Below are positions 331 through 54,191 of a stretch of 64,000 nt of DNA, in pieces. A program made the position numbers and the translations under genes. The notes under the pieces are model-generated. The model was not told the origin of the DNA, did no database searches, and worked only from the letters and a program-made list of their open reading frames with translations. The DNA is taken from the NCBI GenBank assembly GCA_050950765.1, contig JBMNIF010000002.1:896001-960000 (forward strand), in the 5' to 3' direction. This stretch comes from Bdellovibrionota bacterium (GTDB taxonomy: Bacteria > Bdellovibrionota_C > UBA2361 > JAAYZI01). The number at the start of each line of letters is the position of its first letter. The first letter of the stretch is position 1.

Positions 331-795
331 AAAAAGAAGGGTGACACCAGAGCCAGTCCAACCGTAAAAGTCCTAACAAACAGCCCTGCTTTACTGAAGG
401 GTGGCACCAGCGCCAAAGCCACCAAAGCCAAAGCCAAAGCCAAAGGCAGCAGATCAGCTCAAACTGAAGGGTGGCACCAGAGCTACAGTCTCAAGATCTG
501 GCAGAACCGTCCAAACTGAAGGGTGGCACCAGAGCAAACCAACCGCTCGAAGTCTTCAAGAAGGCAAAAAAAGAAGGGTGGCACCAGTACAAATCAACAG
601 ATCCGACCAGTTCTAACCAGAAAGAGAAGCCAGAGAAAAGAAGGGTGGCACCAAATTCGGTTCCAACAGGCACCGAAATCAGGCAGATCCGTCCAAACTG
701 AAGGGTGGCACCAGTGCAAACCAAACTCCCAGAGTCTTCAAGAAGGTAAAAAAAGAAGGGTGGCACCAAAGCCCAAGCTAGCAAAGTAGTAAAAA
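331..795 (+). repeat. GAAGGGTGGCACCA repeat array 1, left part (8 cores)
   Basis: GGTGNCACC cores at 340 (GGTGACACC), 400, 470, 522, 577, 644, 704 and 759, separated by A/C-rich, partly reused spacers. Confidence 0.95.
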
Positions 796-2623
796 CCTGA
801 ATTCCCGCGAAATTATACCATACAAACGTGTTTTTAAAGGTAGCTTTCGAGCGGTATAATCTTACTTTTTCTTAAAAATACTTTTTAGAAAGTCATCTTC
901 TTCAATATTGAAAATTTTCAAAATATCCTTTTGTTTTTTTGTTAACGGAACCATTAATTTACTGCCATTTTTAGTTTCTATAACTTTAATTTTTTGAAGC
1001 TCTTTAATGACATCAGGTATATTAAACTTTTTTTGCCTTGTATCATTTTTAAGTAAATTAAGAATATAACTTCTAAGTATAAGAGCTAAAAATCCAACAA
1101 AAAGTTTTCCTTCTGTGGTTTGAAGATTATGTGTTTTAAGTCTTCTAAAATCAATTTCATTTTTTAGCTGGAAAAATTGTTTTTCAATTACATCTTTTTG
1201 ACGATAACGAAAAAGTGCTTCACTCGGATTTGAATCACAACCAATACCAATCAAAATTAAGAAGCCACAATTTCTCAAGTATTCATCTATAGCTTCTGAT
1301 TTTTTTTCATAAGTGAAACCATCTTCATTTATTTTAATATCAAAATATTTCCTATATTTTTTACGATCCAGCAAAGAGTATTTTAATTTTTTCAGTTCTT
1401 CTAACTCTTCTTCCATTCTAGAAATTTTCTCGTAAAATTGAACTATCTCATATGGCGCCTTTCCCATATTGTAATAAACATAAATCTTTACAGGTTGTCC
1501 CATAACAGTATCTATTACAGAACAACCAAAAGTAGAGGTTCCTTTTATATAATTAGCATCTTGCTTAATAAGTGCAGTGTGATTTTCTAATATTCTTTTA
1601 GCGTCATTCCAATATAGTGGCAAAGGACAAAGTAGTCCAAACTTTTGCCCTTCTTCATTTGCTACTTCCGCTAAATTATCTTGCGTCACAAAACCTTGAT
1701 CCGTAACAAGGTTAATACGATTATTAAGACTAATAAATGGAAAGTCTCTTAAAAGAAAACTAAAATATGTCTTATCTGTAATGCTGCCATTATAAACTTG
1801 ATAGAATAAAGGAAGCTTCGTTGTAGAGCCGTAGCACATACCTATATTTATTTGCGGCAATTTATCCATATCCCTATTATAGCCAAACTCCAATATGCTT
1901 ATTTTTTTACTATAAGAAGATATGGAAGTTACGTCATAATACCAACATTCTTGAGCTAAATATCGCTTCGTCCATTTCTTAAAAAAATTAAGTCTTTTCT
2001 CGTAGTCAATACGTTCAAAAAGACGACTTATTTTTTGACTTGTTAATTCAGAAATTTCATATGGTAAGACACTATCATCTATCCAACTTGAAGCATGTGA
2101 TACTACATTTCCATTTGCTAGAATATAAAACGCTAAAGTTAAAATCTCGTATGTGTCATTTCCAAAAATTGAAAGCAATGTCTTGTCTAACCTTAAATCT
2201 TTTACAATCTTATTTAAAACATAAGTAAGACCAAAAGATTTATTGCTAATAACATATCTATTAGAATCATCTGGAAACAAATCATAGTAATTTCTATTAG
2301 GAATTAATTTCTTACCGCTTTCATCTAGCTTCCCTATACCTATTTCATCAAACGTAGGCTCTCCGTTTTCACGACGAAAGTTCATCCTGTAATAGATATA
2401 AGTAGTCCCATTTTTGTTTTTCTTACGAGCAATTTGCCTATCTGGTAAGTCAACTTTTTTAGTTATTTTTTTCATAAAAAACCTCCCTAATATGTATAGG
2501 GCAATCATACCATACAAACAGGAAATGTCAATATAGAAAAATATATAACTAACTAAAATATCAATAAAAAATACGGTGGCTTATTTCTGGAATGGAGAAA
2601 AGATAAAAATTGCGGAATTTAGG
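796..2623 (-). mobile_element. IS1634-like insertion sequence
   Basis: Imperfect TIRs CCTGAATTCCCGC (796) and GCGGAATTTAGG (ends 2623); 6-bp TSD TAAAAA at 790-795 and 2624-2629; single DDE transposase. Confidence 0.88.
862..2475 (-). CDS. IS1634-family DDE transposase
   Basis: Motifs YYDVTSISSYS, FGYNRD, QINIG, YNGSITD, LVTDQGF, YRQKDVIEKQF and GKLFVGFLALIL. Start placed at the ATG at 2475 behind a GGAGG RBS (track ORF starts at 2517). Confidence 0.9.
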   Translation of the reverse strand: MKKITKKVDLPDRQIARKKNKNGTTYIYYRMNFRRENGEPTFDEIGIGKLDESGKKLIPNRNYYDLFPDDSNRYVISNKSFGLTYVLNKIVKDLRLDKTLLSIFGNDTYEILTLAFYILANGNVVSHASSWIDDSVLPYEISELTSQKISRLFERIDYEKRLNFFKKWTKRYLAQECWYYDVTSISSYSKKISILEFGYNRDMDKLPQINIGMCYGSTTKLPLFYQVYNGSITDKTYFSFLLRDFPFISLNNRINLVTDQGFVTQDNLAEVANEEGQKFGLLCPLPLYWNDAKRILENHTALIKQDANYIKGTSTFGCSVIDTVMGQPVKIYVYYNMGKAPYEIVQFYEKISRMEEELEELKKLKYSLLDRKKYRKYFDIKINEDGFTYEKKSEAIDEYLRNCGFLILIGIGCDSNPSEALFRYRQKDVIEKQFFQLKNEIDFRRLKTHNLQTTEGKLFVGFLALILRSYILNLLKNDTRQKKFNIPDVIKELQKIKVIETKNGSKLMVPLTKKQKDILKIFNIEEDDFLKSIFKKK

Positions 2624-2796
2624 TAAAAAAGAAGGGTGGCACCAGAGCTACAGCCCCAAGATTTGGCAGATCCGCCCAAACTGAAGGGTGGCACCAAATT
2701 CGACCAGCCCAAATCCGCCAGTCCAAACCAAAGCTAAAGCCAGCAGATCAACCTAAACTGAAGGGTGGCACCAAATTCGACTCCCCAAATTCGACT
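2624..2796 (+). repeat. GAAGGGTGGCACCA repeat array 1, right part (3 cores)
   Basis: Cores at 2635, 2687 and 2764; the array ends at the motB stop codon. Confidence 0.95.
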
Positions 2797-3907
2797 ACTC
2801 TTCGTCTATATCGGCTGTCGGTGTGGGAGATTCGATGGTGGCTGCTGTATTTGCTTCGGCGGTGTCTATATCTACATCCGCACCCTCTGTTTCTTCAGAG
2901 GTGTGTGTATTTACGGAGGTGCCTATATCAGCACCATTAGAAGTGTTTGTATTCGAAAATTTTTCTTTAATTTCTTCTACGGGGATGCGGCGCTCCTCTC
3001 CAAAACGCATCTTTATTGCGATGCGGCGGTTTGCTATGGCGTACGGATCGTCCACCACACGCGGATATTTATCCGCCCGTCCTATCACCCCGACGATGCG
3101 CTCTTCTGGAATATTTGCTTCTAATAATAAACGTCGTGCAGCATTTGCCCTGTCAGTTGATAGCTCCCAGTTTGAATATCCTCCGCTTAAACCGCTATTG
3201 TAAGGATGGGCATCTGTATGACCGAGGATATCTATCTTGTTAGGGAATGGAACTAACTGAGCTGCTACCCGTAAGAAAGCCTCTTTTGCTTTTGGATTGA
3301 TAACAGCACTTCCACTTTCAAACATGGAGTACTCTTCAGTATCCATAATCTCCATGACCAGACCATCAGCTTCAACCTGTATCTCAAATTTGCCTAAAGC
3401 GTTTTTCAATTCCGGAATATCTACAAGTTGTGTATTTATTGAGTGTGCTAACTTAGTGAAGTTACGCTTTTCATTTGTCCCACCTTCACCGTCTTCTTCT
3501 GCGGAATCAATATCTTCATCGCCCTCTTTTAAAGGAGAAGCTCCCTTTGATTTAAAAAAGCCATCTTCTCCATCTGTTTTTGCGCTATCTTCAGCCTTTG
3601 AACTTTTCTCAAACGCCATCCCTCCTCCCCCTGGAAGGTTATGAACTGAAAACGGTCTGTCTAAAATACCTGTGTGACCTGGAAGAAGACTTCCGCCAGA
3701 GTTTTCAGCAAATATCCCTGGATCATTGAAGTATTTGGCGATGCCAGTTTTTGTGGCAGAGTCAGCGCTGTTAACAAGCCACATCACAAGAAAGAATGCC
3801 ATCATGGCGGTCATGAAGTCAGCATACGCTACCTTCCAAGCGCCACCATGATGTCCGGCATGACCGCCTTTCTTTTTAATAATTATGATTGGCTTTTCGT
3901 CCGCCAT
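2795..3907 (-). CDS. motB: Flagellar motor stator protein MotB
   Basis: HHGGAWKVAYADFMTAMMAFFLVMWL transmembrane motif; OmpA-like domain GHTD...NWELSTDRA...NRRI. Confidence 0.95.
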   Translation of the reverse strand: MADEKPIIIIKKKGGHAGHHGGAWKVAYADFMTAMMAFFLVMWLVNSADSATKTGIAKYFNDPGIFAENSGGSLLPGHTGILDRPFSVHNLPGGGGMAFEKSSKAEDSAKTDGEDGFFKSKGASPLKEGDEDIDSAEEDGEGGTNEKRNFTKLAHSINTQLVDIPELKNALGKFEIQVEADGLVMEIMDTEEYSMFESGSAVINPKAKEAFLRVAAQLVPFPNKIDILGHTDAHPYNSGLSGGYSNWELSTDRANAARRLLLEANIPEERIVGVIGRADKYPRVVDDPYAIANRRIAIKMRFGEERRIPVEEIKEKFSNTNTSNGADIGTSVNTHTSEETEGADVDIDTAEANTAATIESPTPTADIDEE

Positions 3908-3921
3908 CTCTTCCCATTAAC

Positions 3922-4797: not shown

Positions 4798-4860
4798 AGC
4801 ATTAATCCTTTGTGATTATCACTTCCTATGGGTAATAGTCGGCGCCGTAAAAATATTACT

Positions 4861-6325: not shown

Positions 6326-6706
6326 ATGTCGATTGATTGGTTATGGGATTTAGATAGGGCCGTTGAAGGTGGAAGAGTTTACTATGGATGCCAGAGTGTT
6401 GGCAGAAATCAGTGGGCTATCGCAAGGTCTGTAGATGAATTAAGGGCAATTGCAAAACGTGCTGCAGACCACAAGAGGCTCCCTGTCGATATTGTTAGAA
6501 TTGTCTCTCCGCATGAGACTATTGCAGGAGATCTCTACCTCGTTCCGATTGACGTGGGAGACCCTGGACATCGCGGAGAGCCAAATGTTAAATGGACCTG
6601 TGTTGAAACCAGAGAAGCCGCAGATATGATGAAAGATGTTAGAAAGGGTCCATCTCCTATTTTTGGGATTCAGATAGAAGAGACAATAGATCCAACAGCT
6701 GTATAA
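6326..6706 (+). CDS. Hypothetical protein
   Basis: 126-aa ORF with normal composition downstream of ihfB; no family recognised. Confidence 0.7.
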   Translation: MSIDWLWDLDRAVEGGRVYYGCQSVGRNQWAIARSVDELRAIAKRAADHKRLPVDIVRIVSPHETIAGDLYLVPIDVGDPGHRGEPNVKWTCVETREAADMMKDVRKGPSPIFGIQIEETIDPTAV

Positions 6707-6712
6707 GTTGTT

Positions 6713-6855
6713 TTTTAAGAGTCTGTTGTAGTTGTAGGTGTGACTATTCTTATAACCGGTTGGCTGGCGAAGGTTCTTCCGACGTTGCCGCCGGTTTTTA
6801 AATATAATTCCTTAGGAATCGACACGTCACAGATGCAGCCCCTTCCGTAAAAGTC
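6713..6855 (-). repeat. Diverged duplicate of the 3' end of the YjeF-N-like gene
   Basis: Aligns to 7952-8088 with about 9 transitions and one 6-bp in-frame insertion. Confidence 0.92.
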
Positions 6856-7960
6856 CTAACAAGCAGCCCTGCTACTGAAGGGTGGCACCAGTACAAATCA
6901 ACAGATCCGACCAGTTCTAACCAGAAAGAGAAGCCAGAGAAAAGAAGGGTGGCACCAAAGCCAAAGCTGCAGCAAAGTAGTAAAAAAGAAGGGTGGCACC
7001 AAACCCAAACCAAAGCCAAAGCTGCAGCAAAGTAGTAAAAAAGAAGGGTGGCACCAAACCCAAACCAAAGCCAAAGCTGCAGCAAAGTAGAAAAAAGAAG
7101 GGTGGCACCAAAGCCAAACCACCAAAGCCGAAGCCAAAACCAAAGCCAGCAAAGTAGTAAAAAAGAAGGGTGGCACCAAACCCAAACCAAAGCCAAAGCC
7201 GAAAAAAGGAGGGTGGCACCAGTTTTAAGCCAGATCTAGGCACCGCAAAAGTCCTGACAAGCAGCCCTGCTACTGAAGGGTGGCACCAAAGCCAAACCAG
7301 TTTTTCAAGAAGGTAAAAAAGAAGGGTGGCACCAAACCCAAACCACAGCAAAGTAGAAAAAAGAAGGGTGGCACCAGTTTTAAGCCAGATCTAGGCACCG
7401 CAAAAGTCCTGACAAGCAGCCCTGCTACTGAAGGGTGGCACCAAAGCCAAACCAGTTTTTCAAGAAGGTAAAAAAGAAGGGTGGCACCAAACCCAAACCA
7501 CAGCAAAGTAGAAAAAAGAAGGGTGGCACCAGTTTTAAGCCAGATCTAGGCACCGCAAAAGTCCTGACAAGCAGCCCTGCTACTGAAGGGTGGCACCAAA
7601 GCCAAACCAGTTTTTCAAGAAGGTAAAAAAGAAGGGTGGCACCAAACCCAAACCACAGCAAAGTAGAAAAAAGAAGGGTGGCACCAGTTTTAACCACCAG
7701 TACAAATCAACAGATCCGACCAGTTCTAACCAGAAAGAGAAGCCAGAGAAAAGAAGGGTGCACCAAAGCTGCAGCCCCAAAGCAAAAGCCAAAGCTCGCA
7801 AAGTAGCAAAAAAGAAGGGTGGCACCAAAGCCGAACCAAAGCCGAACCAAAGCCGAAGCACCAAAGCCGAAGCCGACTGGTGGGTGGCACCAAACCCAAA
7901 CCAAAGACAAAGCCAGCAAAAAAGAAGGGTGGCACCAGTTTTAAGAGCCAGTTTTAAGAG
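6845..7960 (+). repeat. GAAGGGTGGCACCA repeat array 2 (about 20 cores)
   Basis: Cores from 6881 to 7928; includes a 155-bp higher-order unit repeated three times (cores 7212/7367/7522/7677); one core is GGTGCACC. Confidence 0.95.
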
Positions 7961-8733
7961 TCTGTTGTGGGTGTGACTATTCTTATAACCGGTTGGCTGG
8001 CGAAGGCTCTTCCGACGTCGCCGCCGGTTTTTAAATATAATTCCTTAGGGATCGACACGTCACAGATATAGTTCCTTCCGCAAAAGTCGTTTCCTATAAG
8101 TAAGCCATTTAAAGGTATACCGAGTGAAAGGGTTGAGGAGGCGTAAAGCGTTGTAGCGGCGTGAGCCCCCGTATCAGGTGCTAAACCGAACGGACACTGC
8201 ACACAGTGGACAGGGGTCTGTAAAGTATTTAATGTTTCAATAATATGCTTTTCAAGATCTGTGGCTGTACGATCTAGATCGGAAAGCCCGCAAAGTACAT
8301 TATGCGAATCCTTAAGATACTCTGCTAAGGGCGGTAGACCCGCACTCTCTTCAACAGTTATTACCTCCACTCCCTGCTTTGTTAAGATCTTTAATTGTGA
8401 TTGAAGTTGTGCGGAAAGTGTCTCAGCACTTTTTATATGTAGAACAGAAACAGAAGCTCCAGCATTAAAGAGGTGTCGTAAGGCAGCTAGGATAACCCAA
8501 CTGGAGAGATTGTCGTTGATAATACCAACAGAATACGCTCCTTCAGCGCTATACGCCAGCGCTGCTCTAACAACCATAGCCAAAGAAAAAGAAGCAGATT
8601 CAGTTATCTGAGTATAAGAAAGCCCGTAAGTTGTCGTTAGCGCAGTTAAAATGCTCTGATATGTCGCATAAGATACCGTCGGGATCTGAAGATTAGCCTC
8701 ATCTATAAAAAAATTGTTTGTCGTCTCTTGCAT
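7954..8733 (-). CDS. YjeF N-terminal (NAD(P)HX epimerase-like) domain protein, degenerate active site
   Basis: Fold landmarks ESASFSLA, ALRHL, CPFGLAPDTG, STLSLGIPLNGL and CGRNYICDVSIP; the GNNGGDG motif is absent. Confidence 0.7.
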   Translation of the reverse strand: MQETTNNFFIDEANLQIPTVSYATYQSILTALTTTYGLSYTQITESASFSLAMVVRAALAYSAEGAYSVGIINDNLSSWVILAALRHLFNAGASVSVLHIKSAETLSAQLQSQLKILTKQGVEVITVEESAGLPPLAEYLKDSHNVLCGLSDLDRTATDLEKHIIETLNTLQTPVHCVQCPFGLAPDTGAHAATTLYASSTLSLGIPLNGLLIGNDFCGRNYICDVSIPKELYLKTGGDVGRAFASQPVIRIVTPTTDS

Positions 8734-8754
8734 GATCTATCCTTATTATTTCAA

Positions 8755-8952
8755 TTACAAAAAAGAGGGATTAAAGTTGTCGTTTGTAACAACCATAGCC
8801 AGAGAAAAAGAAGCGGATTCAGTTATCTGAGTATAAGAAAGCTCATAAGTTGTCGTTAGCGCAGTTAAAATGCTCTGATATGTCGCATAAGATACCGTCG
8901 GGATCGAAAGATTAGCCTCATCTATAAAAAAAGTGTTTGTCGTCTCTTGCAT
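8755..8952 (-). pseudogene. Truncated tandem copy of the 5' end of the YjeF-N-like gene
   Basis: 219-bp period duplication (about 8568-8786 vs 8787-9005) including the RBS; first 55 aa nearly identical. Confidence 0.9.
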
Positions 8953-9117
8953 GATCTATCCTTATTATTTCAATTACAAGAAAGAGGGGTTATAGTTAAA
9001 AGTCGCTGTTTGTAATACTGCAAAATTTAAGGCTTTCGCTAATGTCAGAATATCTGCAATTGAGATATTGCAAAACAGGTAAAAAACGATTGTAGATTTG
9101 ACTGTAAAGATGGCATA

Positions 9118-9651
9118 GCCTAGCGTGCATATTATACGTAATTATAAGCGATATTTTTGTGATTGTGAAAAAGGCTGAATATGAATAAGCAACCGACAGT
9201 GGCGATTTCCGGTACTACGGGAGTAATCGGCAGTGAGATAGTTTCTATTATTAATGATATGCAGCTTCCCCTCGGGGAGGTGCGCTTACTGGGATCTAAA
9301 AACTCAGTAGGAGAGGTGTATGATGTGCTCGATGATGAGGTTAAAGTTAATCTCTTAGAGAGTGAAAGCTTTGAAGGGGTGAATGCCTAGCGTGCATATT
9401 ATACGTAATTATAAGCGATATTTTTGTGATTGTGAAAAAGGCTGAATATGAATAAGCAACCAACGGTGGCGATTTCCGGTGCTACGGGAGTAATCGGCAG
9501 TGAGATAGTTTCTATTATTAATGATATGCAGCTTCCCCTCGGGGAGGTGCGCTTACTGGGATCTAAAAACTCAGTAGGAGAGGTGTATGATGTGCTCGAT
9601 GATGAGGTTAAAGTTAATCTCTTAGAGAGTGAAAGCTTTGAAGGGGTGAAT
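9118..9651 (+). repeat. Two extra 267-bp tandem copies of the upstream region and 5' end of the asd-like gene
   Basis: Unit starts at 9118, 9385 and 9652; 69-aa ORFs at 9181 and 9448 repeat the N-terminus of the ORF at 9715; a few SNPs separate the copies. Confidence 0.95.
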
Positions 9652-9714
9652 GCCTAGCGTGCATATTATACATAATTATAAGCGATATTTTTGTGATTGT
9701 GAAAAAGGCTGAAT

Positions 9715-10716
9715 ATGAATAAGCAACCAACAGTGGCGATTTCCGGTGCTACGGGAGTAATCGGCAGTGAGATAGTTTCTATTATTAATGATATGCAGCT
9801 TCCCCTCGGGGAGGTACGCTTACTGGGATCTAAAAACTCAGTAGGAGAGGTGTATGATGTGCTCGATGATGAGGTTAAAGTTAATCTCTTAGAGAGTGAA
9901 AGCTTTGAAGGGGTGGATGTTGCTATCTTTGCTTTACCTGCAGATGTCGTTGAAAAATACGCCAAGAAAGCTTTGAGTGCCGGATGCGTTGTAATAGATA
10001 CATCTACTTTTTTCAGAATGAATGATGAGTCTCTTTTAGTTGTACCCGCTGTTAATCTTGAAGAGATTTCAAAAGAGACAAAGATGATAGCCTGCCCGAA
10101 TGCTTGTGTGGTCCAACTTGCGCCGCTTCTGCAGGTGGTAGATAAACTCGCCTCTATCAAGCGTGTGGTAGTTACGTCTCTACAACCTGTTGCCAGCGCC
10201 GGTAAGGTGGCTCTAGATGAATTGTGGAATCAGACAATGGCTATTTTTAGACAAGCTGAAGTTGAAATTGAAGCTTTTCAACATCAGATAGCTTTTAATT
10301 GCATTCCGCAGATCGGAGTTTTCTCAGATAACGGTTATACTAAAGAGGAGTTATCTATTGCAGTAGAATTGAAGCGAGTCCTTAAGAAAAAAGATCTGCA
10401 GATTTCATTAACAGCTGTGCGAATCCCGATCTTTCACGGAAGTTCTTTAGTAGTGAATATCGAGACAGAGAGAGCGCTTGAAGTATCCAATCTTAATGAT
10501 CAATTAACGAACGTAATTGACCTTGAAGTTATGCAAGCATACGAAGAGTATCCGATGCCCCTTTCTGTTGCCACTAATGCCGAAAATATTATCGGAAGAA
10601 TTAGAAAGGCGTCAGATAATGTTTTAGATCTCTGGATCTCCGCAGACGGTATCAGAGCGGGTGTTGCTTGTGGCGTTGCTAGAATTCTTCAACGCATTAT
10701 GGAGTGTCATCAGTAG
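9715..10716 (+). CDS. Aspartate-semialdehyde dehydrogenase family protein (Usg-like, catalytic residues altered)
   Basis: GATGVIG, HQIAFNCIPQI and NGYTKEE motifs; NPNCST reads CPNACV and GHS reads GSS; directly upstream of truA. Confidence 0.8.
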   Translation: MNKQPTVAISGATGVIGSEIVSIINDMQLPLGEVRLLGSKNSVGEVYDVLDDEVKVNLLESESFEGVDVAIFALPADVVEKYAKKALSAGCVVIDTSTFFRMNDESLLVVPAVNLEEISKETKMIACPNACVVQLAPLLQVVDKLASIKRVVVTSLQPVASAGKVALDELWNQTMAIFRQAEVEIEAFQHQIAFNCIPQIGVFSDNGYTKEELSIAVELKRVLKKKDLQISLTAVRIPIFHGSSLVVNIETERALEVSNLNDQLTNVIDLEVMQAYEEYPMPLSVATNAENIIGRIRKASDNVLDLWISADGIRAGVACGVARILQRIMECHQ

Positions 10717-10724
10717 TTTTTAAT

Positions 10725-11462
10725 ATGATTACAGTAAAGCTTATTATCGAGTACAACGGAGCCGGTTTTCATGGTTGGCAAAATCAACCTGGACAGCGCA
10801 CGGTACAAGGTGAGCTGGAACGTGTTCTGCCGATGATTTTGAGAGCTCCGTTAAAAAATTTTGTAGCATCAGGTAGAACTGATGCTGGAGTGCATGCCAA
10901 AGGGCAGGTGGTGAGCTTTCGTGTTGAAGAGGAGCCGGATCTTGAAAAAATTAAGCGTGCTGTTAGTTCACTGTTAAGCCCCGAGGTCTCTGTTTTATCA
11001 GCGGAGATAGTGGATAATTCTTTTCATGCTACCTTGAGTGCACGTGGAAAACGGTACGTTTATACGATAATAAACAGGCAGTCTCCGCCTACTTTGGATT
11101 ATGATCGCGCTTGGTGGGTAAGTGCAAAGCTAGATATTGAAAGAATGCGACTTGAAGCTGCGCAGTTATGCGGAGAGCATGATTTTAAAAGCTTTGCAGG
11201 ACCTAAATGCCAAGTAAAATCTACCGTTAGAACTATCACACGATCGGAGATCGTATCTGAACCACCATACCTATATTACATCGTTGAAGGAAACGGTTTT
11301 ATTAAGCAGATGGTGCGTAATATAGTCGGTACATTAGTAGATTTCGGGAAAGGTCGTGCACAGGCAGCTTCAATCTCCGAAGTTATGGCTGCTAAGGATA
11401 GACGTAGCGCCGGAGTAACTGCACCTGGCTATGGCTTGTGCTTGGAAGAAGTTTTTTACTAG
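10725..11462 (+). CDS. truA: tRNA pseudouridine(38-40) synthase TruA
   Basis: YNGAGFHGWQ, SGRTDAGVHAKGQV, GEHDFKSF, FIKQMVRNIVG and TAPGYGLCL. Confidence 0.96.
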   Translation: MITVKLIIEYNGAGFHGWQNQPGQRTVQGELERVLPMILRAPLKNFVASGRTDAGVHAKGQVVSFRVEEEPDLEKIKRAVSSLLSPEVSVLSAEIVDNSFHATLSARGKRYVYTIINRQSPPTLDYDRAWWVSAKLDIERMRLEAAQLCGEHDFKSFAGPKCQVKSTVRTITRSEIVSEPPYLYYIVEGNGFIKQMVRNIVGTLVDFGKGRAQAASISEVMAAKDRRSAGVTAPGYGLCLEEVFY

Positions 11463-11585
11463 ACTATCTTTAGGTACACTTTGTGTTTAAGAGGTTTTTT
11501 TACTAAACTATCTTTAGGTATACTTTGTGTTTGAGAAGTTTTTTATTAAACTCTCTTCTGCTATGGCTTGTGCTTGGAAGAAGCT
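11429..11585 (+). repeat. Degenerate ~44-bp tandem copies of the truA 3' end
   Basis: GCTATGGCTTGTGCTTGGAAGAAG at about 11429 and 11560; ACTATCTTTAGGTA occurs twice in between. Confidence 0.8.
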
Positions 11586-18659: not shown

Positions 18660-18910
18660 GGAGGTAAGGGCTATTTAAAAAGAAGCCGATCGTGAAGTAA
18701 GAAGGGGAACCGAGAAATCTTTAACTACCGTGTATTGAGCGGAGGTAAGGGCTATTTGAAAAGAAGCCGATAGTGAAGTAAGAAGGGGGATCGAGAAATT
18801 TTTAACTACCGTGCATTAAACGGAGGTAAGGGCTATTTAGGATAAAGTTACTTGTGAAGTAAGAAGGGGGATCGAGAAAATATTAACTATCGTGTATTAA
18901 ACGGAGGTAA
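18660..18910. repeat. 81-bp tandem repeat x3 containing the 3' end of the RluA-family gene
   Basis: GGAGGTAA at 18660, 18741, 18822 and 18903 (the last inside the CDS); TAACTAYCGTGYATT repeated. Confidence 0.9.
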
Positions 18911-21845: not shown

Positions 21846-22041
21846 TTTAAAGAACACTTTTTTCGAAAAATCTTCTAGCATAATCTCTGCAAAGAAAGCG
21901 TGTAGGAATTAAATCCTTGTCACAGACCTTTAAGAACATTTTTTTAAAAAAATCTCCTAGTAGGATCTCTGCAAAGAAAGCGTGTAGGAATTAAATCCTC
22001 GTCGCAGACCTTTAAGAACATTTTTTCGAAAAATCTTCTAG
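21846..22041. repeat. 82-bp tandem repeat, about 2.4 copies, between convergent genes
   Basis: AAGAACA at 21850, 21932 and 22014; ATCTCTGCAAAGAAAGCGTGTAGGAATTAAATCCT occurs twice. Confidence 0.9.
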
Positions 22042-22062
22042 CTAAAAAGTGGCAGTAGAAAC

Positions 22063-31214: not shown

Positions 31215-32514
31215 TTACTCTAGCCCTGTTTTTAATAATAACCACCTATTTTCAGCAGGTGCGCCCGTTCGGGAGGTTCCCATACGCACCCAGACTTTCG
31301 CCATGAAGATGAAATTAATATAACCGTCTTTTGCCACAGCTTCTGCTGGTGGATGTGGGTCTCTAGCACTACTATGAATAGCTTGCAAAACTGCTTCATC
31401 AAAGTTTCGACTCTCTGATTTTTGTAAAAACTCAACGTCTTTTAATTCACCCGTAGGAGAAAGTTTGGCGCGAAAAACTGCAGAGCCTTTAGCTGCACGG
31501 ATATCAGCGGCACTTAAAGCGCTCCAACTCTGTTGTTTTAAACGATAAAAAACTTGAGTTGCGACGCGTCTAACAAAGGTGGCGAATTTATCAGCTTTGG
31601 CGTTAAGTAATGTTATATCGCCATCACTAATTCCAGGGATATAATCACTAGAGCCGTTTATGCCGATAAAGCGCGCGCCACTTCCGCTCGATCTTGAAAA
31701 GGGGGCGGGGTCTGCAACTTGCAAAGGCTCTGAGGTGTCGTATTGTTTACCATGCCCCAACTCACTAAGTAGGGCGTAGTCCGGACTTAAGTCTAAGGTT
31801 TGTGATTGTGATGATGTGGCTAAGTGATTATCAGAGAAGATCGCTCCCTTTCCACTTGCTCCACCACTTGCGGAGATATTTTTAGCGGTGCCTACTATTT
31901 TAGAAGACCCTTTTGAAGGGTGTGTAGATCCAGTAGAAGTTTGACTCTGTTTATTAGTAGCCTTTGAAGAACCTTTTACATTAGTTAGTCTTTGCTTATT
32001 AGCAGCTTTTGAAGAGCCTTTTACGTTAGTTAGTCTCTGCTTAGTAGTAGCTTTTGAAGAACCTTTTACAGAATAGTTCCCGAAGGGAGCGTTTTTTAGT
32101 TCAGATCCAGCGTCTAAGCCGTCGCCACGCCGAATCTGCTCTTTTTCTGCAGCAGAATCTGTATCTGAAAGAAATCTAGTCGGTTTTTTTTGGCGTTTGA
32201 TTTAATCCTGCATCTGGAGTGGTGACGATCTGCCTTTCCGATAGAGTTAGAGGCATTTGCTCTAGTTGTTTAATATTTTTTAAAGGTATTTTGGAGGAGT
32301 GAGGCGGGCTCTGTTTAGGAATGGCGTTAACCATCTCAACAGCAAAGATCTTTTCTTCTACCTTCTTCGGTGCGGTGCTTTGTTTACTGAGTAAGAGATA
32401 AAAAAAAGCGAGGTGTAAAAGCAGTGATATTGAGAATGCCGAAAAAAAATAACAATTTGTTTTTGTGTGTTGAAGTGGTATTTCGCCTAACACATTAAAA
32501 GTTTGTTCTGTCAC
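31215..32514 (-). pseudogene. TonB C-terminal domain protein with a frameshift in an A8 tract
   Basis: The TM motif SISLLLHLA is in one frame. Removing one A from the run at 32184-32191 joins it to an open frame (PTRFLSDTDS...EQIRRGD) continuing into ORF 31215-31760 (TonB-C-like). Start is approximate. Confidence 0.8.
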
Positions 32515-35385: not shown

Positions 35386-35407
35386 GCAGGCGCAGGGTGG
35401 CACTAGA

Positions 35408-38698: not shown

Positions 38699-39655
38699 AT
38701 GATGATGGATGTTGAAGAAATAGAGGCTCTCGATCTTATTGATGTTGATAAAGATAGCTCTGAATTGTCGAACGGTTCTGAGGATCAAAGTTCTGGATCC
38801 ATTCAGTTTATAGGAGATGTCGCTACGCTTGAGGATGCCCTTGAAGATGATGATGATCTTGGGGTGTTATCGGAGAGTGAGAGTGTTCCTGCCATAGAGG
38901 CGATGTTGCTTGCTAGTGGAGATCCTTTAGCGGTTAGTAGGATCTGTGAGGTGACGGGGTTAAGTGAGGGGAAAGTTCGTGACGCTTTAGAAAGTATTCA
39001 GATGAGTTATGAGAGTGACGAAAACGGCTTTGAGTTGGTTAATGTCGGCGGGCGCTTTCAGTTCAGAACGAAAGCTAAATACGGGCGTTTTGTCTTGGCG
39101 CTAAAGGAGAGTAAGCCGAGACGCTTAAGTCATGCAGCCTTAGAGACGTTGGCGATCGTTGCTTACAGACAACCTGTTGTTAAATCAGATATTGAAAAGA
39201 TTAGAGGTGTTGATGCCACCCCTACCTTAAAAACGCTTTTAGATAAAAATCTAGTTAAAATTGTTGGGCATAAAGAAGCGGTGGGACAACCTGCTTTATA
39301 CGGAACAGGGGATGAGTTTTTAAATCTTTTTGGGATGTCCAGTTTGTCGGATCTTCCTACACTAAGAGACCTGAAAGAGTTTGAAAGAGATCCAGGTGAA
39401 GACGGCACAGCAAGTGATTGTGAAGATGAAGGAGAAGAGATAGATGGTGCAGAAGACGGGAGTGAAGAAACAGTCATTTCAGAAGGGTGCCAAGAGGAGG
39501 AGTGCACCTCCAGCGCAGAAGCAGAAGAGCAAAGGGGTGGAGAAGAAACGATCGTACAAAACGACGACGACCACTTCACAACGTCACTCTGCGCAGAAGA
39601 GTCCGAAGAGAAATTCATCTCGTCCGAAGACGGCAAGAAGTGCCAAACCTGCTGA
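38699..39655 (+). CDS. scpB: SMC-Scp complex subunit ScpB with acidic tails
   Basis: LSHAALETLAIVAYRQPV, IEKIRGV and LYGT...FL..FG...L.DLP. Confidence 0.95.
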   Translation: MMMDVEEIEALDLIDVDKDSSELSNGSEDQSSGSIQFIGDVATLEDALEDDDDLGVLSESESVPAIEAMLLASGDPLAVSRICEVTGLSEGKVRDALESIQMSYESDENGFELVNVGGRFQFRTKAKYGRFVLALKESKPRRLSHAALETLAIVAYRQPVVKSDIEKIRGVDATPTLKTLLDKNLVKIVGHKEAVGQPALYGTGDEFLNLFGMSSLSDLPTLRDLKEFERDPGEDGTASDCEDEGEEIDGAEDGSEETVISEGCQEEECTSSAEAEEQRGGEETIVQNDDDHFTTSLCAEESEEKFISSEDGKKCQTC

Positions 39656-45644: not shown

Positions 45645-46240
45645 TCTTAGGGTGGCACCAAATTTTTGACCTCCGTCCAGATCTAGGTGATTCGCTTTTT
45701 AGTTGCAGCCCGTTCTGCTGTCCTTGGTGGGTGCTAAATTTTTAACCCCCGTCCAGATCTAGCTAGTTCTGTCTTCTGTTGCAGCCCGTTCTGCTGTCCT
45801 TGGTGGGTGGCACCACCGTCAGCCTCCAAAAAAGAAGGGTGGCACCACCGTTTCCCGTTAGCTGACTTCCGAGTTTTTTCTGATTTTTTGTTAAAAATTG
45901 GTTGTGCTAAAAGTTAAGATATTGAAATGTAAGAAGAATTGTTCAGAAAAGTGCTTTTAAAAAAGTACCTAGAAAAAGTACCTAAGGGTTTTTTAAAGGT
46001 GGTAGAGCAGAAGGGTGTTCTGCTGTCCTTGGTGGGTGGCACCAAATTTTTGACCTTCGTCGAGATCTAGGTGAACCGTCTTTTCTGTTGCAGCCCGTTC
46101 TGCCGTCCCTGAAGGGTAGCACCAGCGTCAGCCTCCAAAAAAGAAGGGTGGCACCACCGTTTCCCCCGTCCAGATCTAGGTGATCCGTTTTTTCTGTTGC
46201 AGCCCGTTCAATCGTCCTTGCTGGTACTAAATTTTTAGAC
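45645..46240 (+). repeat. GGGTGGCACC repeat array 3
   Basis: Five intact cores (about 45651, 45806, 45838, 46035, 46147) plus degenerate ones, with the unit CCAGATCTAG...TTGCAGCCCGTTCTGC repeated about 4 times. Confidence 0.9.
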
Positions 46241-46366: not shown

Positions 46367-46443
46367 TGGTCGCGGGGATAGGATTTGAACCTATGACCTC
46401 GGGGTTATGAGCCCCACGAGCTACCAGACTGCTCCACCCCGCA
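46367..46443 (-). tRNA. tRNA-fMet (CAT)
   Basis: 77-nt cloverleaf, CAT anticodon, consecutive G-C pairs in the anticodon stem, non-Watson-Crick 1:72 pair, encoded CCA. Confidence 0.95.
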
Positions 46444-49662: not shown

Positions 49663-49692
49663 TTACTAATTTTAAGGCAAGAATGCACGGAG

Positions 49693-52600
49693 ATGAAAGT
49701 TTCTAAGGAAGAGGTTGTTATGAGTGGAATATATAGGTGCTTACTCGGCATAGCGCTCTTAGTTTTTGTTGTACTTCCTGCACAAGTTGTAGCAGATCCC
49801 CGTATCGGTGACAGATATACCCTCCCTGCTAAAGGGAGTGTGGAGTGCACCTCCACAGTGATGAATGAAATAGCGGCTGCGTTTAATACGCAAGGTTATT
49901 GGGTTCTTGATGATCTTGTTCATCAGATTGGAGAGTTTAATTTAGGTTTATGGGCACCTTTTCTGTACATCTTCGTTGTTTTCTTCGGGCTTATTCAGAT
50001 GGCGATGGGCATGCCACCAAGGACGTATATGTGGTGGATCTTCGGTCCGATTATCTATGATTGGCTTCTTTTTACGCCGGTAGAAGAAGCTAGAAAAGGG
50101 GTGTGTTGGAACGTTGGGACCTCTAAACAGACTCAAGCAGAAGTTTGGAGATTAGCAGAGGTCGGTTTTGTAAATCTTAATGATATTGAAAACCGTGCTA
50201 AGGGCTACTCTATTGAAAAAGGTCCAAACGAGGGAGCTAGGTATATCCCTATGGTTTTTGCTTGGTTTGATGACTTAATCAGTGATCAGATTGAGTTTCT
50301 TGTGGCTTGGTCTGGTATTACTCGGCAGATTAAAAACCCCAACGGGACAACGTATATGCATAACCAGCCTAGCAGTATAACCTCGAAAAGTGATGGTGAT
50401 GTAAATCCTTGGGCTATCTTAACTAATTCAAAATGGCCGATGCTTGAAGATATTACGGCTTCAACTCTACACAATGCAGATCTAAGGGAAGCTCTTTCGA
50501 GATTTATGGCGAGTGAGTGTGGAGACAAACTCTCTGAATTTATAGATAAAGGAGCTTATGCATCTTCCGGTGCTGCTAGAGGGGTAAAATTACCTGAATC
50601 TGTTTTTGTAGATTGTAATGGTGCAACGGAGACTATCGGTGGCAATGCTGGGTATAAAAAGATACTAAACGCCTTAAAAACACAGTGGGTTCCTTATCCG
50701 GAAGAGCTTAAGAGGATGCTCTACCCTGTGGGTAAAGATGAAAGTGGAAGTTTTGTGAACTTTTCTTCCGCTACTAAACAATTTTCAGAGGTGCTTACTA
50801 AGGATACCTCTCCGATGCAGATAAATTGCGCACAATTTCTTTATCTGATTATGCAGGGGTTTAGATGGGAGTCGGGACACGCTTATAACCAAGTTATTGC
50901 ACGAGCTTCCGAACATAAACTTACAGCGGAAGTTGTTACATATGATTTTTTATACGGCTGGAGAATTGGAAAAGAGAATAGTGTATCATTGACTATTAAG
51001 GAGCAGCAGCAGTTCGTTCAAAACCTGATCTTACTTTATATGATGAGAAATGAGTTTAGGATGGTTACTGCTCCTGCGGACAGGAAGTATACCTCTTCAG
51101 AGCGTGCGGAAAATTATGTTAATCTTAACGCCGCTACGGTAGGCTCCAAAAATAAATTCGGCGAACTCTATATGTGGGCAAAGTTGATGCCTTATATGCA
51201 GGGGGTGGCGCTATATTTCCTTTCTGCTATGTACCCCTTTGCCTGTATGTTGATGATTATCCCAGGTTGGCATAAGGTGATCTTGACTTGGATGGGGTTC
51301 TATGCTTGGGCGAAAAGTTGGGATGCAGGCTTCGCTGTCGTGATGTCTTTAGAGAGAAATATCTGGGCGATGGTCGGTAATACGCACGATGCTGCGGAGA
51401 TAAATGAGAGGGTTTATCAACAAAGGTTAGCTGGTACTATCAAATTACAAGAGGGCGTAACTGATGCTGGCGGAACTTGTGATATGCCTAATCTTGTGGG
51501 GTGTCTAATCCCCGATGTTATAGATCAAGGGGAGGTGGGTGCTAAAGGCGATACTCAGGCTTTTACAAGTGCTATCAGAACATTTGATTATGGAATGCTT
51601 CTTACTTCTAGATTAGATCTGGATTTAGCTAATGCGTATTACATCTATCTGATGTCCGCTCTCTATTTTGCAGTTCCTGCGGTAACGGGACAGATCCTTC
51701 TCGGTGCAAAGGCCGGTATAGCCGGTATGCTTACTCAAGGTGTTAGTGGTGTTGCACAACAGACCGGTAGCGGAGCAGGTATGGGCTATCAAGGTGAGTT
51801 AAGTACAGATACTGCTAATAATCAGGCTGTTGCTTCACAGGAAGGATTCGCTAAGAGCTTAAGGAATGGTGGCTTCGCTCAACGTGCTCTTGAAGCAGGT
51901 AGCGCTTCTGCTAAAACAGAGCAGACAAGCGCTGGCGCTAGTGCAATGGGTTCATTAGTTGGTGTAGAGCAGGGGATGAATGCTCAAAATTGGGATATGC
52001 ATGATGCAGCGCTAAAAAATGTTGTCGGCGCAGTAACTGGGGTAGTTGAGACGGGGCAAGATGTAAAAAATAAAGTGGGGAATAAAAAAGCTCCTACTCC
52101 CCCCTCTTCCGGTTCTAGTGTTGTTGGTGGTGGTGCTGGTGGAGGTGCCGGAGGTGGTGTTGGTGGAGGTGTCGGAGGTGTCGGAGGTGGTGCTGCTAGT
52201 ACTGGTTTGCAAAACACTGCTGATCAAATATTACAACATTTAAAAGCCAGTGCAGGTGGACAGTCTTGGCCGCAAATATTTAATACGGGGCTAAGGGCAG
52301 CTGCTGCTGGTGCTGGTGCAGGGATAGCGTATGGTAAGGGGCAGTCTTCTTTTGCTTTCTCTAAAGATCAGGCTGACTATACTGCAAGTGGTGCTATCGC
52401 TGGTGCGGAGTCAAGATTGGTTGGTTTTCAATCTGGAAGGTATGGTGAAGTGGCACAACAAGCTGCTGCTGAAAAACAGTGGGTTGCGAGTAGAAGACTC
52501 GGTAGGCAGATGGCGGGAACTATGTCTGCTATGGGTATCTTCCCCAATTCATTTACGGCAGGACCTAAGCCAACCAGTGTAAATGGTATGTTAGGGCTTG

Positions 52601-52875
52601 GGATGGGGGATACTACCTCGTGGAATGCAGTTAAACAGGGCGATTTTTATGGCTTTGGAGTTCAGGGAGAATATAACAAAAATGTGGGTCAGATATCTGG
52701 ATATAAAGATCAAATTGGAGAAACTGCGGGTTACTTTACTGAAGGTGCTAATTTCAAAGGAACTATTGGAGTTAGTAAAGAGGAAATTGGAAGAAGTTTT
52801 AAAGATACGTTCTCTTCAGATGATAATATGTTTAAAGAGCCAACAGGAACATTTCGTCAAGTCGAAAAGAAGTGA
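49693..52875 (+). CDS. TraG N-terminal-like (VirB6-type) membrane protein with Gly/Ala-rich tail
   Basis: N-terminal TMs, large periplasmic region, MPYMQGVALYFLSAMYPF...WAKSWD TM block, LYFAVPAVTG, then a low-complexity tail. Confidence 0.6.
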   Translation: MKVSKEEVVMSGIYRCLLGIALLVFVVLPAQVVADPRIGDRYTLPAKGSVECTSTVMNEIAAAFNTQGYWVLDDLVHQIGEFNLGLWAPFLYIFVVFFGLIQMAMGMPPRTYMWWIFGPIIYDWLLFTPVEEARKGVCWNVGTSKQTQAEVWRLAEVGFVNLNDIENRAKGYSIEKGPNEGARYIPMVFAWFDDLISDQIEFLVAWSGITRQIKNPNGTTYMHNQPSSITSKSDGDVNPWAILTNSKWPMLEDITASTLHNADLREALSRFMASECGDKLSEFIDKGAYASSGAARGVKLPESVFVDCNGATETIGGNAGYKKILNALKTQWVPYPEELKRMLYPVGKDESGSFVNFSSATKQFSEVLTKDTSPMQINCAQFLYLIMQGFRWESGHAYNQVIARASEHKLTAEVVTYDFLYGWRIGKENSVSLTIKEQQQFVQNLILLYMMRNEFRMVTAPADRKYTSSERAENYVNLNAATVGSKNKFGELYMWAKLMPYMQGVALYFLSAMYPFACMLMIIPGWHKVILTWMGFYAWAKSWDAGFAVVMSLERNIWAMVGNTHDAAEINERVYQQRLAGTIKLQEGVTDAGGTCDMPNLVGCLIPDVIDQGEVGAKGDTQAFTSAIRTFDYGMLLTSRLDLDLANAYYIYLMSALYFAVPAVTGQILLGAKAGIAGMLTQGVSGVAQQTGSGAGMGYQGELSTDTANNQAVASQEGFAKSLRNGGFAQRALEAGSASAKTEQTSAGASAMGSLVGVEQGMNAQNWDMHDAALKNVVGAVTGVVETGQDVKNKVGNKKAPTPPSSGSSVVGGGAGGGAGGGVGGGVGGVGGGAASTGLQNTADQILQHLKASAGGQSWPQIFNTGLRAAAAGAGAGIAYGKGQSSFAFSKDQADYTASGAIAGAESRLVGFQSGRYGEVAQQAAAEKQWVASRRLGRQMAGTMSAMGIFPNSFTAGPKPTSVNGMLGLGMGDTTSWNAVKQGDFYGFGVQGEYNKNVGQISGYKDQIGETAGYFTEGANFKGTIGVSKEEIGRSFKDTFSSDDNMFKEPTGTFRQVEKK

Positions 52876-52952
52876 AGTAAATAACTGTATGCGGGGAGGA
52901 GTTAACTAAAGAAGAGTAGCACTCACAACAGGTGCTACCTATCTAAATCTCT

Positions 52953-52980
52953 TTATCCCCCCTTACAAAGGGGGGGATAA
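52953..52980. terminator. GC-rich hairpin
   Basis: TTATCCCCCCTT-ACAA-AGGGGGGGATAA downstream of the traG-like gene. Confidence 0.55.
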
Positions 52981-53273
52981 GGCGCTAAGAGTGGCGTAAG
53001 CCTCCTTTCACTTAATCCATTCATTTTTTTAATAATTTCATATTGTTAGATTGTGTGCAGATAATAGGCGCTAAGCCTAGCTGGCTCCCTTGCTCTAAAG
53101 GGTGGCACCAAATTTCCAGCTAATTTCTTCAATGCTTTGAGAGCGCCCAAAGTTAAAGATTGACCAAGACTGGATCTGATTCGGAGTTTGGAATATCTTT
53201 CGGGTGTCGTAGTTAGCTTTGTGATACGACATCTAACATAACGGCATTTACTGTTTTTCAGGAGTGACCAACA

Positions 53274-54191
53274 ATGATAAATCGAAAAAAACTTAATAAG
53301 ATTACCGTTCCCTCTATCCTACTTAGTAAAAGTAAGGGACAACAGGGGGGCGACACCAAAACCAAAACGGAGGTAGGTGACACCAAAGCTCATCAAAACT
53401 CCACACCCCAAACCACAATTGAAAAAATTACGGCGCTGACGGCTTATGATTACACCACAGCGTGCCTTTTTGATCGTGCTGGAGTTGATATAATCTTGGT
53501 TGGAGATTCTGTCGCAACTGTTATGCAGGGACACTCTACAACACTTCCAGTAACCCTTGATGAAATGATCTATCACTGCAAATGCGTTACGGCAGGTGTA
53601 AAACGCGCCCTCGTCGTTGGCGATATGCCGTTTTTGTCATATCAATCTTCCATAGAAAAAGGGGTCGAATCTGCTGGACGCTTACTAAAAGAGGGCGGAG
53701 TCTCCGCCGTGAAACTTGAAGGCGGCGTCTACATGGCGGCAACTATCGAAAAATTGGTGCAGGTAGATATCCCCGTTGTCGGACATATCGGACTCACTCC
53801 ACAATCATTTCATAGAATGGGGGGACATAAACAACAGGGAAGAACCTCCTCCTCTCATAACGCAGAAGTCGCGACTGCCGGTTCAAAAGAACGAATTATC
53901 GAAGATGCCATCGCAGTTGAAGAAGCTGGCGCTTTTGCTCTCGTTATTGAAGGGGTACCGGCTGAGTTGGGAGCTGAGATAACGAGTAGAGTATCAATCC
54001 CGACTATCGGTATCGGTGCGGGGTATGGCTGTGACGGTCAGATCCTTGTTTATAGCGATATGTTGGGGCTGAACCCTGATTTCTGCCCGTCATTTGTTAA
54101 ACAATATGTAAATCTGGCAGAGATAATAACGGCTGCTGTTAAACAATATATTAGCGAAGTCGAAAGTGGTGTCTTTCCCCAAAAACCGTAG
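53274..54191 (+). CDS. panB: 3-methyl-2-oxobutanoate hydroxymethyltransferase
   Basis: LTAYDY, ILVGDS, GDMPFLSY, AVKLEGG, GHIGLTPQ and IGIGAG..CDGQILV. Confidence 0.97.
   Translation: MINRKKLNKITVPSILLSKSKGQQGGDTKTKTEVGDTKAHQNSTPQTTIEKITALTAYDYTTACLFDRAGVDIILVGDSVATVMQGHSTTLPVTLDEMIYHCKCVTAGVKRALVVGDMPFLSYQSSIEKGVESAGRLLKEGGVSAVKLEGGVYMAATIEKLVQVDIPVVGHIGLTPQSFHRMGGHKQQGRTSSSHNAEVATAGSKERIIEDAIAVEEAGAFALVIEGVPAELGAEITSRVSIPTIGIGAGYGCDGQILVYSDMLGLNPDFCPSFVKQYVNLAEIITAAVKQYISEVESGVFPQKP

Follow-up and report, generated by a model that had tools for sequence, protein, structure and literature searches.

In the systems known as REPtrons, described from E. coli, Pseudomonas and Stenotrophomonas, the gene for a class-2 Y1/HUH protein is bracketed by inverted copies of a short motif, which is over-represented extragenically and lies mostly downstream of genes (PMC2817692, PMC3116915, PMC5581495). 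In published descriptions this repetitive extragenic palindromic (REP) motif is a hairpin of 20-40 nt with a GT[AG]G foot, REPINs are inverted REP doublets, REPs alternate in orientation in BIMEs, and the REP-associated tyrosine transposase (RAYT) is typically a domesticated single-copy gene. Here we describe arrays of a short asymmetric core, GGGTGGCACCA (11 nt), in the genome of a Bdellovibrionota bacterium, starting from a stretch of 64,000 nucleotides (the window; C2:896001-960000 of a 2.64-Mb assembly in 5 contigs). The arrays probably represent a REP/BIME-like, RAYT-associated repeat family of unusual form, with a multi-copy Y1/HUH protein as the most likely cognate enzyme.

A second arrangement, the TIRtron, combines a long RAYT-like protein (TIRYT) with flanks that are short inverted repeats and not REP hairpins (PMC3733652; PMC6006769, Table 1). 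Copies of these terminal inverted repeats (TIRs), for which a consensus GGGGWSAS, that of the majority type, has been published, can occur in dimers or clusters, and the TIR families described in that account are moderately abundant (PMC3733652). Quentin et al. (2018) report no associated repeat for their subclasses 2.1 and 2.3 (PMC6006769). A comparable repeat architecture comes from Neisseria, where NIMEs, built of dRS3 and RS units (Bentley et al., 2007), form long intergenic arrays with a short conserved repeat and many families of 19-214 bp units reshuffled between arrays, and where insertion sequences land opportunistically in the arrays (PMC1797815). The dRS3 element, ATTCCCN8GGGAAT, is an inverted repeat of 20 bp that serves a phage transposase/recombinase (PMC1797815).

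A genome-wide family of one-directional arrays

The exact core occurs 943 times in the assembly, in 129 clusters, 99 of which hold three or more copies. When one mismatch is allowed, 1083 cores are found, and 994 of these fall into 101 arrays that occupy 66,393 bp (2.5% of the genome) and contain up to 28 cores each. The extended 14-mer, GAAGGGTGGCACCA, is present in 518 exact copies (308 on one strand, 210 on the other). The motif is therefore not restricted to the loci of the window, and it has a linked enzyme, as set out below. Among core variants, GGTGGCACC occurs 547 + 439 times, GGTGCACC 44 times and GGTGACACC 15 times. The original prediction had treated the core as a symmetric palindrome; the 4+1+4 palindrome is real, but its centre base and its flanks (GG...A) are conserved asymmetrically, and the palindrome is not symmetric in use.

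Within an array the cores all point the same way. Head-to-tail arrangement accounts for 871 of 899 neighbouring core pairs (97%), with 23 pairs head-to-head and 5 tail-to-tail; every array is one-directional, and arrays of both orientations are found across the genome. Array direction shows no bias with respect to the replichores, as assigned by GC skew (57 vs 44 arrays, p=0.23). We therefore reject a chromosome-level replichore polarity and regard strand polarity as a property of the individual array. The strand polarity noted in the original prediction accordingly holds only within an array; across the genome, direction correlates with the neighbouring gene and not with the replichores.

The family is overwhelmingly extragenic, with 900 of the 943 exact cores outside crude open reading frames (ORFs) and 43 within them. 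Read in the sense of GGGTGGCACCA, the gene downstream of the array lies on the opposite strand in 74 of 99 arrays, and among arrays situated between tandem genes TGGTGCCACCC reads in the gene sense in 36 cases and the other way in 13. Convergent intergenic regions are enriched among arrays (39/101 vs 270/1442) and divergent ones depleted (13/101 vs 305/1442). The forward strand of the core contains GAAGG-GTG, similar to a ribosome-binding site followed by a start codon, and many of the listed ORFs start at the core GTG. We speculate that selection may lie behind the preference for the reversed orientation downstream of genes.

A RAYT-like protein in multiple copies

The enzyme suggested in the original prediction, a transposase of the Y1_Tnp family (PF01797), was indeed found: a Pfam Y1_Tnp search of the genome gave six matches, and each of the six genes is bracketed by cores. 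They encode six copies of a 322-aa protein with 99-100% identity, accompanied by one partial copy. The protein scores 29.8 bits against Pfam Y1_Tnp (cut-off 23). Its best NCBIfam family is the REP-associated tyrosine transposase (REP_Tyr_transpos; 67.4 bits, under the cut-off of 80), and the NCBIfam IS200 model gives 18.3 bits (cut-off 55). A sequence match was obtained with PDB entry 4er8, E. coli TnpA-REP, and an AF2 model (pLDDT 90.2) likewise has 4er8_A as its top Foldseek match (E 3e-6, target TM 0.69), with the ISDra2 and IS608 transposases ranking next. Residues H61 and H63 (HUH) and Y121, N125 and P126 (Y---NP) are invariant across 25 homologues, and Y---NP is the class-2 signature (PMC6006769, Table 1).

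The C-terminal part of about 170 residues is also conserved and carries four mostly conserved cysteines (C203, C266, C284 and C287), so that it might be a metal-binding module for DNA recognition. Pfam searches of this part at E up to 1 gave chance-level hits only, no PDB fold was matched beyond the N-terminal domain, and no helix-turn-helix or DnaA-like C-terminal domain was detected in the Pfam search of the 322-aa protein. Judged by its sequence and its modelled fold, this is a class-2 Y1/HUH protein of the RAYT/TnpA-REP kind. It is most likely the cognate enzyme of the arrays, and is predicted to be active in this genome.

The family is present in 84 of 91 genomes of the order, mostly as several diverged paralogues (15-20 each in G063 and G073), and its entries in a protein atlas come mostly from Myxococcota. 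Metagenomic homologues (P0003-P0016, 40-52% identity) all lie on contigs of about 1-4 kb, which suggests that in those organisms, too, repeats that break assemblies surround the gene.

The link between gene and core

All six gene copies share about 1.4 kb of DNA with an identical layout. From 5' to 3' this comprises at least one reversed 79-nt unit, a head-to-head pair of cores (TGGTGCCACCCTT, 30 nt, AAGGGTGGCACCA), the gene, about 200 bp and CTGGTGGGTGGCACCAG. Inverted cores thus bracket the gene in 6/6 copies, reversed upstream and forward both just before the gene and downstream of it. The gene lies in a large unit of the forward array, which is the layout of a REPtron or TIRtron. Two of the copies are followed by partial tandem copies of the 3' part of the gene, each beginning directly after a core.

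Two further observations concern the DNA upstream of the gene. Between the forward core and the start codon, all six copies contain two perfect hairpins, TTGGCA-ATCC-TGCCAA and GGCA-ATTC-TGCC (L008, ~1813-1900), which may be an operator or promoter element. A seventh head-to-head pair, much like the one upstream of the Y1 gene, is found at G000 C1:385498-386067, with a gap of 652 bp and no intact gene alongside; it may be the remnant of a lost gene copy.

Among 173 ORFs flanking arrays, the Y1 protein is the most recurrent family, with its six members. It is followed by a DDE transposase (4), three ABC-ATPase-like ORFs, which are read as chance paralogues, and several pairs that include the insertion sequence type of the window. 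The arrays are moreover clustered around the gene copies: 34 of 99 lie within 20 kb of one, where 9.4 would be expected and none of 5000 randomisations gave more than 21, and the number is 25 once arrays at less than 2 kb are excluded. In the window, a gene copy is 3-11 kb away from the first two arrays. The linked enzyme anticipated in the original prediction is thus borne out by both recurrence and proximity.

The arrays of the window

The features of the window, together with the nearest gene copy, are as follows (window positions unless a contig is given).

C2:892201-893166: nearest copy of the Y1 gene, 2.8 kb left of window position 1
239-249, minus strand: reversed near-core, TAGTGCCACCC on the plus strand, 1 mismatch, about 90 nt 5' of array 1
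331-795, plus strand: array 1, left part; 8 cores at 339-768, the initial one a GGGTGACACCA variant; units of 52-70 nt
796-2623, minus strand: IS4-superfamily insertion sequence that splits array 1; transposase ORF 862-2517, 551 aa, Pfam DDE_Tnp_1
2624-2796, plus strand: array 1, right part; 3 cores at 2634-2773
6713-6855, plus strand: left copy of a 143-bp direct repeat of the 3' end of gene 7954-8733, 90% identical, at the 5' edge of array 2
6845-7960, plus strand: array 2; 19 exact cores (6881-7936) and one GGTGCACC variant near 7753
7952-8088, plus strand: right copy of the 143-bp direct repeat, the genuine 3' end of gene 7954-8733
35395-35405, plus strand: solo near-core GGGTGGCACTA, 1 mismatch
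39211-39221, minus strand (opposite to the array cores): solo near-core, 1 mismatch
45645-46240, plus strand: array 3; 5 exact cores (45651-46155), a 1-mismatch core at 46114 and additional degenerate copies
53100-53110, plus strand: solo exact core, intergenic between an ORF end at 52875 and an ORF start at 53274

The exact 14-mer is found 29 times in the window and on the plus strand only (shuffles 0/100), GGTGNCACC 37 times against 0.29 expected, and the exact core 35 times, again on the plus strand only. The three arrays and the solo copies near 53100 and 35395 reported in the original prediction were all recovered. Its statement that all array copies lie on the plus strand agrees with the 35 exact cores; near-cores of reversed orientation do exist at 239-249 and 39211-39221. 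The first of these makes a head-to-head pair, as is seen at the 5' ends of other arrays. A spacing of mostly 40-80 bp had been proposed; inside the arrays the exact 14-mers are mainly 42-77 bp apart from start to start, within a full range of 42-141 bp. The spacers are, as claimed, not unique and consist of recycled modules with brief CCAAAG/CCAAAC iterations. In array 2, a 155-bp block of three units is repeated 3.5 times in tandem with 98% identity (7157-7693).

All three arrays run up to the 3' end of a gene or tRNA on the minus strand. The right part of array 1 stops 22 nt short of the stop codon of a MotB-like gene (2795-3907, minus strand), array 2 terminates at the stop codon of gene 7954-8733 (minus strand), and the 3' end of array 3 faces the 3' end of tRNA-Met (46367-46443, minus strand) at a distance of about 120 nt. 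The units of array 3 are of the commonest type in the genome, about 79 nt long (AATTTTTAACC...CAGCCCGT...GTCCCTGAAGGGTGGCACCA).

Array 1 had originally been given as a stretch of cores spanning 331-2796. It is one array of 11 cores (340-2772) interrupted by an IS4-superfamily element that lies outside the repeat system and is flanked by a 6-bp target duplication, TAAAAA, at 790-795 and 2624-2629. The end of this type of insertion sequence recurs after another array elsewhere (A29). A second DDE family flanks arrays four times, and its ORF call extends into a core.

Array 2 looks as if it had grown within the duplicated gene end. Flanking direct repeats are present at just 10 of 101 arrays, so that the 143-bp case is an exception and flank duplication is rejected as a general feature of the arrays. 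Tandem duplications of gene 5' regions also occur near array 2, within 8568-8997 and 9118-9919: one has a period of 219 bp in 2 copies with 95% identity, the other a period of 267 bp in 3 copies with 98% identity. The N-terminus of gene 7954-8733 has a truncated second copy at 8755-8952. Five other intergenic tandem repeats of the window, at 11446-11580, 18660-18910, 21850-22047, 31938-32070 and 54302-54523 (periods 44, 81, 82, 45 and 44 nt), have no sequence relation to the GGGTGGCACCA family. A copy of GGTGACACC at 53376, within ORF 53274-54191, is probably unrelated to the repeat family as well.

A search of the window with Rfam at gathering thresholds returned only a tmRNA and tRNA-Met, with no match on the arrays. 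The tmRNA gene is at 58272-58673 and has the tag ANDNDFAYDYNCALAA.

Unit structure and array turnover

Cutting the arrays at their cores yields 879 units, 775 of them distinct, which range from 21 to 316 nt with length peaks at 32, 43, 53, 65, 79, 88 and 110 nt. Each unit terminates in the asymmetric core. The 79-nt family, represented by 156 distinct sequences, has the consensus AATTTTTAACCTCCGT..AGATCTAGC..GCAGCCCGT..GTCCCTGAAGGGTGGCACCA. Conservation reaches at least 90% in the core and in a few islands and drops to 30-59% in the weakest interior columns, and the core columns are 96-100% pair-forming. Shorter units resemble internally deleted versions in which both ends are retained. No conserved stem or covariation was found in the 156 distinct 79-nt units on either strand, by RNAalifold with RNA and DNA parameters or by a scan of column pairs and mutual information. 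Array 2 contains no terminator-like hairpins, against 4.5 in shuffles.

Arrays begin and end at a common point of the unit. The boundary CACCA|AATTTTT is shared by 19 of 28 scorable array starts and 47 of 92 ends, and a further 19 ends come within the core that follows, after GGGTGG. Within their own array, 269 of 782 units have a twin with 95% identity or more, and 115 of 782 have one in another array. Recent change is mostly local, and the local amplification and cassette exchange postulated in the original prediction are both visible in these counts. Blocks common to different arrays are usually a single unit (median 61 nt) bounded by cores. Unit lengths are not multiples of three, stop codons fall in all frames, and the arrays are non-coding.

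Relatives and independent sequence data

Arms of this kind are not peculiar to the six genes. Across this and other genomes, 8 of 16 homologue loci have their own inverted arms around the gene at similar distances, and the arms differ among paralogues (ACTGGTGCCA, GGGTCACCC, CTGGAGGGGGCCTACT, TGGAGGCCCCCT, CTCCACCCCAA, TTGCTCCAA). In G030 the only four copies of the motif are three in tandem on one side of the gene and one, inverted, on the other. G073 contains a one-way mosaic array of AGGGTGACCCCAA; it is small, has short iterations behind the core and lies 7 kb from the gene. The 12-mer AGGGTGGCACCA of the present genome is also found in G019 (38 copies), G063 (17) and G073 (16), three genomes of the order that represent two further families. 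In genus g10 it forms inverted pairs 86-118 nt apart (L041, G063:C2, 372-501, and other sites in G063 and G073); these are REPIN-like doublets, unlike the one-way arrays described here.

The exact 14-mer is absent from 40 relatives, and AGGGTGRCMCCA has 613 matches in this assembly against at most 38 elsewhere. Large amplification is seen in this assembly only, the other genomes being mostly fragmented and losing repeats. Searches for two cores with a gap gave one match in genome_contigs, a coding repeat in an unrelated metagenome-assembled genome, and two in metagenome_contigs, both in unrelated high-GC DNA; this genome's own records were possibly excluded from both.

The organism is found in digester and bioreactor metagenomes from 16 studies. 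Contigs from two independent studies are identical to the array at 7081-7176 and at 7731-7999, and the second of these pieces crosses from array 2 into its flanking gene, which argues against an assembly artefact for these pieces, though not for full array lengths. Four read sets were consulted as Logan contigs, which give presence and sequence only, not depth, strand or ends. Short-read contigs break inside arrays, and the letters between their joints match units of other arrays. One joint, 6892>7921 in X2, was rejected as a real rearrangement, having only 20 letters on its shorter side, and is regarded as cross-mapping between arrays. Parts of array 2 are uncovered in the RNA libraries; an RNA-library contig, X15, spans 6673-6935 and enters array 2 at its left edge, which is no proof of transcription.

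Comparison with described systems

The original prediction presented the arrays as an undescribed system. They fit the REPtron/TIRtron concept (PMC3733652, PMC6006769), as a variant in which the arrays are mosaic and run one way, the core is not a hairpin and the enzyme is multi-copy. Literature searches by TIRYT, TIRtron and REPtron and, among the matches listed, by the letters of the motif gave no description of this particular family; the listed motif-letter matches were primers or similar, none of them concerned with a bacterial repeat.

The likeness to REPtrons extends from the class-2 HUH and Y---NP signatures, with TnpA-REP as the nearest solved structure (PMC6006769), to the inverted motif copies around the gene, the extragenic abundance of the motif and its placement mostly behind the 3' ends of genes. 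The differences are equally clear. The core is a 4+1+4 palindrome with no GTAG at the core, in contrast to the REP hairpin. Adjacent cores form 871 direct against 28 inverted pairs, in place of inverted doublets or alternation, in arrays of up to 28 cores. The enzyme has 322 aa, including a C-terminal part of about 170 aa that matches nothing, and is present in six near-identical copies. The system thus works like a REPtron or TIRtron, yet it departs from REPs, REPINs and BIMEs in three defining features: its core is no hairpin, neighbouring cores are mostly direct and do not form inverted doublets or alternate, and its enzyme is multi-copy.

With TIRtrons the system shares a long RAYT-like protein and flanks of short inverted repeats that are not REP hairpins. 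The flanks of the homologues in G073 and G063, TTGGGGTCACCCT (GGGGTCAC), contain the published GGGGWSAS consensus, and clustering of TIR copies is on record (PMC3733652). The core of the present genome, however, reads GGTGCCAC at this consensus and differs at 2 of 8 positions, and the moderate abundance of published TIR families contrasts with about 1000 copies in about 100 one-way arrays here. With NIMEs the resemblance is one of architecture only, since the core is GGGTGGCACCA, 11 nt long, asymmetric, one-directional and Y1/HUH-linked.

IS200/IS605 elements such as IS608 and ISDra2 have the same catalytic fold, gave the second-best structural matches and share the occurrence of multiple near-identical copies, as well as the concept of strand-specific ends and of insertion beside a short specific sequence. 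They encode a short Y1 transposase (~150 aa) with a Y---Q motif and carry subterminal hairpins at both ends. The present protein is longer, has Y---NP and not Y---Q and scores far below the IS200 cut-off; no subterminal hairpins were found at the gene-bearing elements, and the arrays show no replichore orientation bias.

Proposed mechanism and alternative explanations

We propose that the enzyme would recognise the core strand-specifically on single-stranded DNA, and nick and rejoin at or next to its 3' edge, CACCA|. Units, and likewise the 1.4-kb gene-bearing unit, would thereby be copied or moved beside an existing core. Arrays would then grow and reshuffle mainly through local tandem duplication and exchange of units between arrays, with the identical cores as joints, at which homologous exchange would shuffle the units. 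A free 3' end or a stalled fork at the core could promote slippage 3' of the core and so give rise to the CCAAAG/CCAAAC iterations, seeded by its CCAAA tail.

Several observations weigh against this mechanism. The units lack a conserved hairpin, which the known TnpA-REP and IS200/IS605 enzymes need, in vitro in the case of TnpA-REP (PMC8266576). The first units of arrays have no preceding core-like target, and de novo insertion beside a core does not seed arrays. Recent dispersal is modest, as the count of 115 in 782 units with a near-identical copy in another array indicates. The clustering of arrays around the gene could come about if the gene-bearing element prefers array-rich regions. An age gradient around the gene copies was rejected, since unit similarity is flat with distance and units near a copy are not younger. 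Finally, in G019, which belongs to another family of the order, AGGGTGGCACCA occurs 38 times and a control 2 times; the copies form one-way mosaic arrays with CCAGCC iterations, and this genome (92% complete, 20 contigs) gave no match to the Y1 family profile. Either the arrays of G019 outlive the enzyme, or the gene lies in an assembly gap, or another factor maintains the arrays.

Some of the same observations favour self-perpetuating satellite DNA, driven by slippage, unequal crossing-over and gene conversion at identical cores, with the Y1 element no more than a mobile element that exploits this motif or inserts into it, like the DDE insertion sequences. The predominance of twins within arrays, the 155-bp block of array 2, the arrays of G019 with no detectable homologue, the flat age profile and the presence of two DDE families in arrays would all be expected of such DNA. 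We nevertheless consider it unlikely. Slippage alone leaves unexplained why about 100 separate arrays should share a single, strictly conserved asymmetric core, and neither the paralogue-specific variant flanks in other genomes nor the invariable bracketing of the gene by inverted cores in the same register is accounted for. The DDE elements, for their part, show target duplications within units and not core-defined ends.

A host factor might instead read the core, either on the DNA or in the 3' untranslated RNA of the upstream gene, and so act on mRNA stability, termination or nucleoid structure, for example, roles that have been suggested for REPs. The arrays would then be functional 3' cassettes, whatever made them, and this explanation, although distinctly improbable as an account of the family, is compatible with enzyme-driven array formation. 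The placement of arrays relative to genes described above (the opposite-strand gene downstream, the sense of TGGTGCCACCC between tandem genes, the excess in convergent and the deficit in divergent regions) speaks for it, as do the recurrence of the 12-mer in two further families and the invariance of the core while unit interiors drift. The absence of terminator-like hairpins from array 2, the lack of any Rfam match on the arrays and the lack of conserved RNA structure do not, and arrays would likewise be left behind genes if selection purged those that hit promoters.

A protein-coding repeat, a CRISPR-like array or an assembly artefact is largely refuted and extremely improbable: short ORFs starting at the core GTG are listed in all frames and short-read contigs break inside arrays, but coding is contradicted by the unit lengths, the stops in every frame and the 43 of 943 cores in crude ORFs, CRISPR (expected: repeats of 24-48 bp, unique spacers and cas nearby) by a core of 11-14 nt and re-used spacer families, and an artefact by the exact array pieces in two independent studies. 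No cas genes were apparent among paralogous families of two or more in the 173 flanking ORFs, where single-array flankers were not scanned for cas domains. An integron attC/CALIN origin was considered and set aside, not on a formal test but because the units are gene-free and R'/R'' boxes were not observed.

Beyond enzyme-driven arrays in this genome, a wider and more doubtful proposal may be considered. The long Y1/HUH clade found in 84 of 91 genomes of the order might recognise a short, asymmetric, non-hairpin core (AGGGNGNCNCCA-like) and build one-directional mosaic arrays by nick-primed copying. HUH-driven genome structuring would in that case have a third architecture in addition to REPIN doublets and BIMEs. 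The arrays would perhaps have been co-opted by the host as exchangeable cassettes behind genes, and the enzyme of the present genome would still be an active multi-copy element, not a domesticated single gene.

Implications

At a practical level, the arrays make up 2.5% of the genome, break short-read assemblies and are prone to being miscalled as ORFs from the core GTG. In the REPIN model RAYTs are single-copy and domesticated; the layout described here departs from it, with mosaic arrays that run one way and an enzyme in multiple copies. Long RAYT-like proteins (TIRYT and subclasses 2.1 and 2.3) are a large Y1 group to which the papers cited here assign either no repeat family or a modest one. 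The present genome combines such a protein with about 1000 copies of the motif that flanks its gene, and so provides a natural substrate set for biochemistry on the strand, the cut site and the need for a hairpin.

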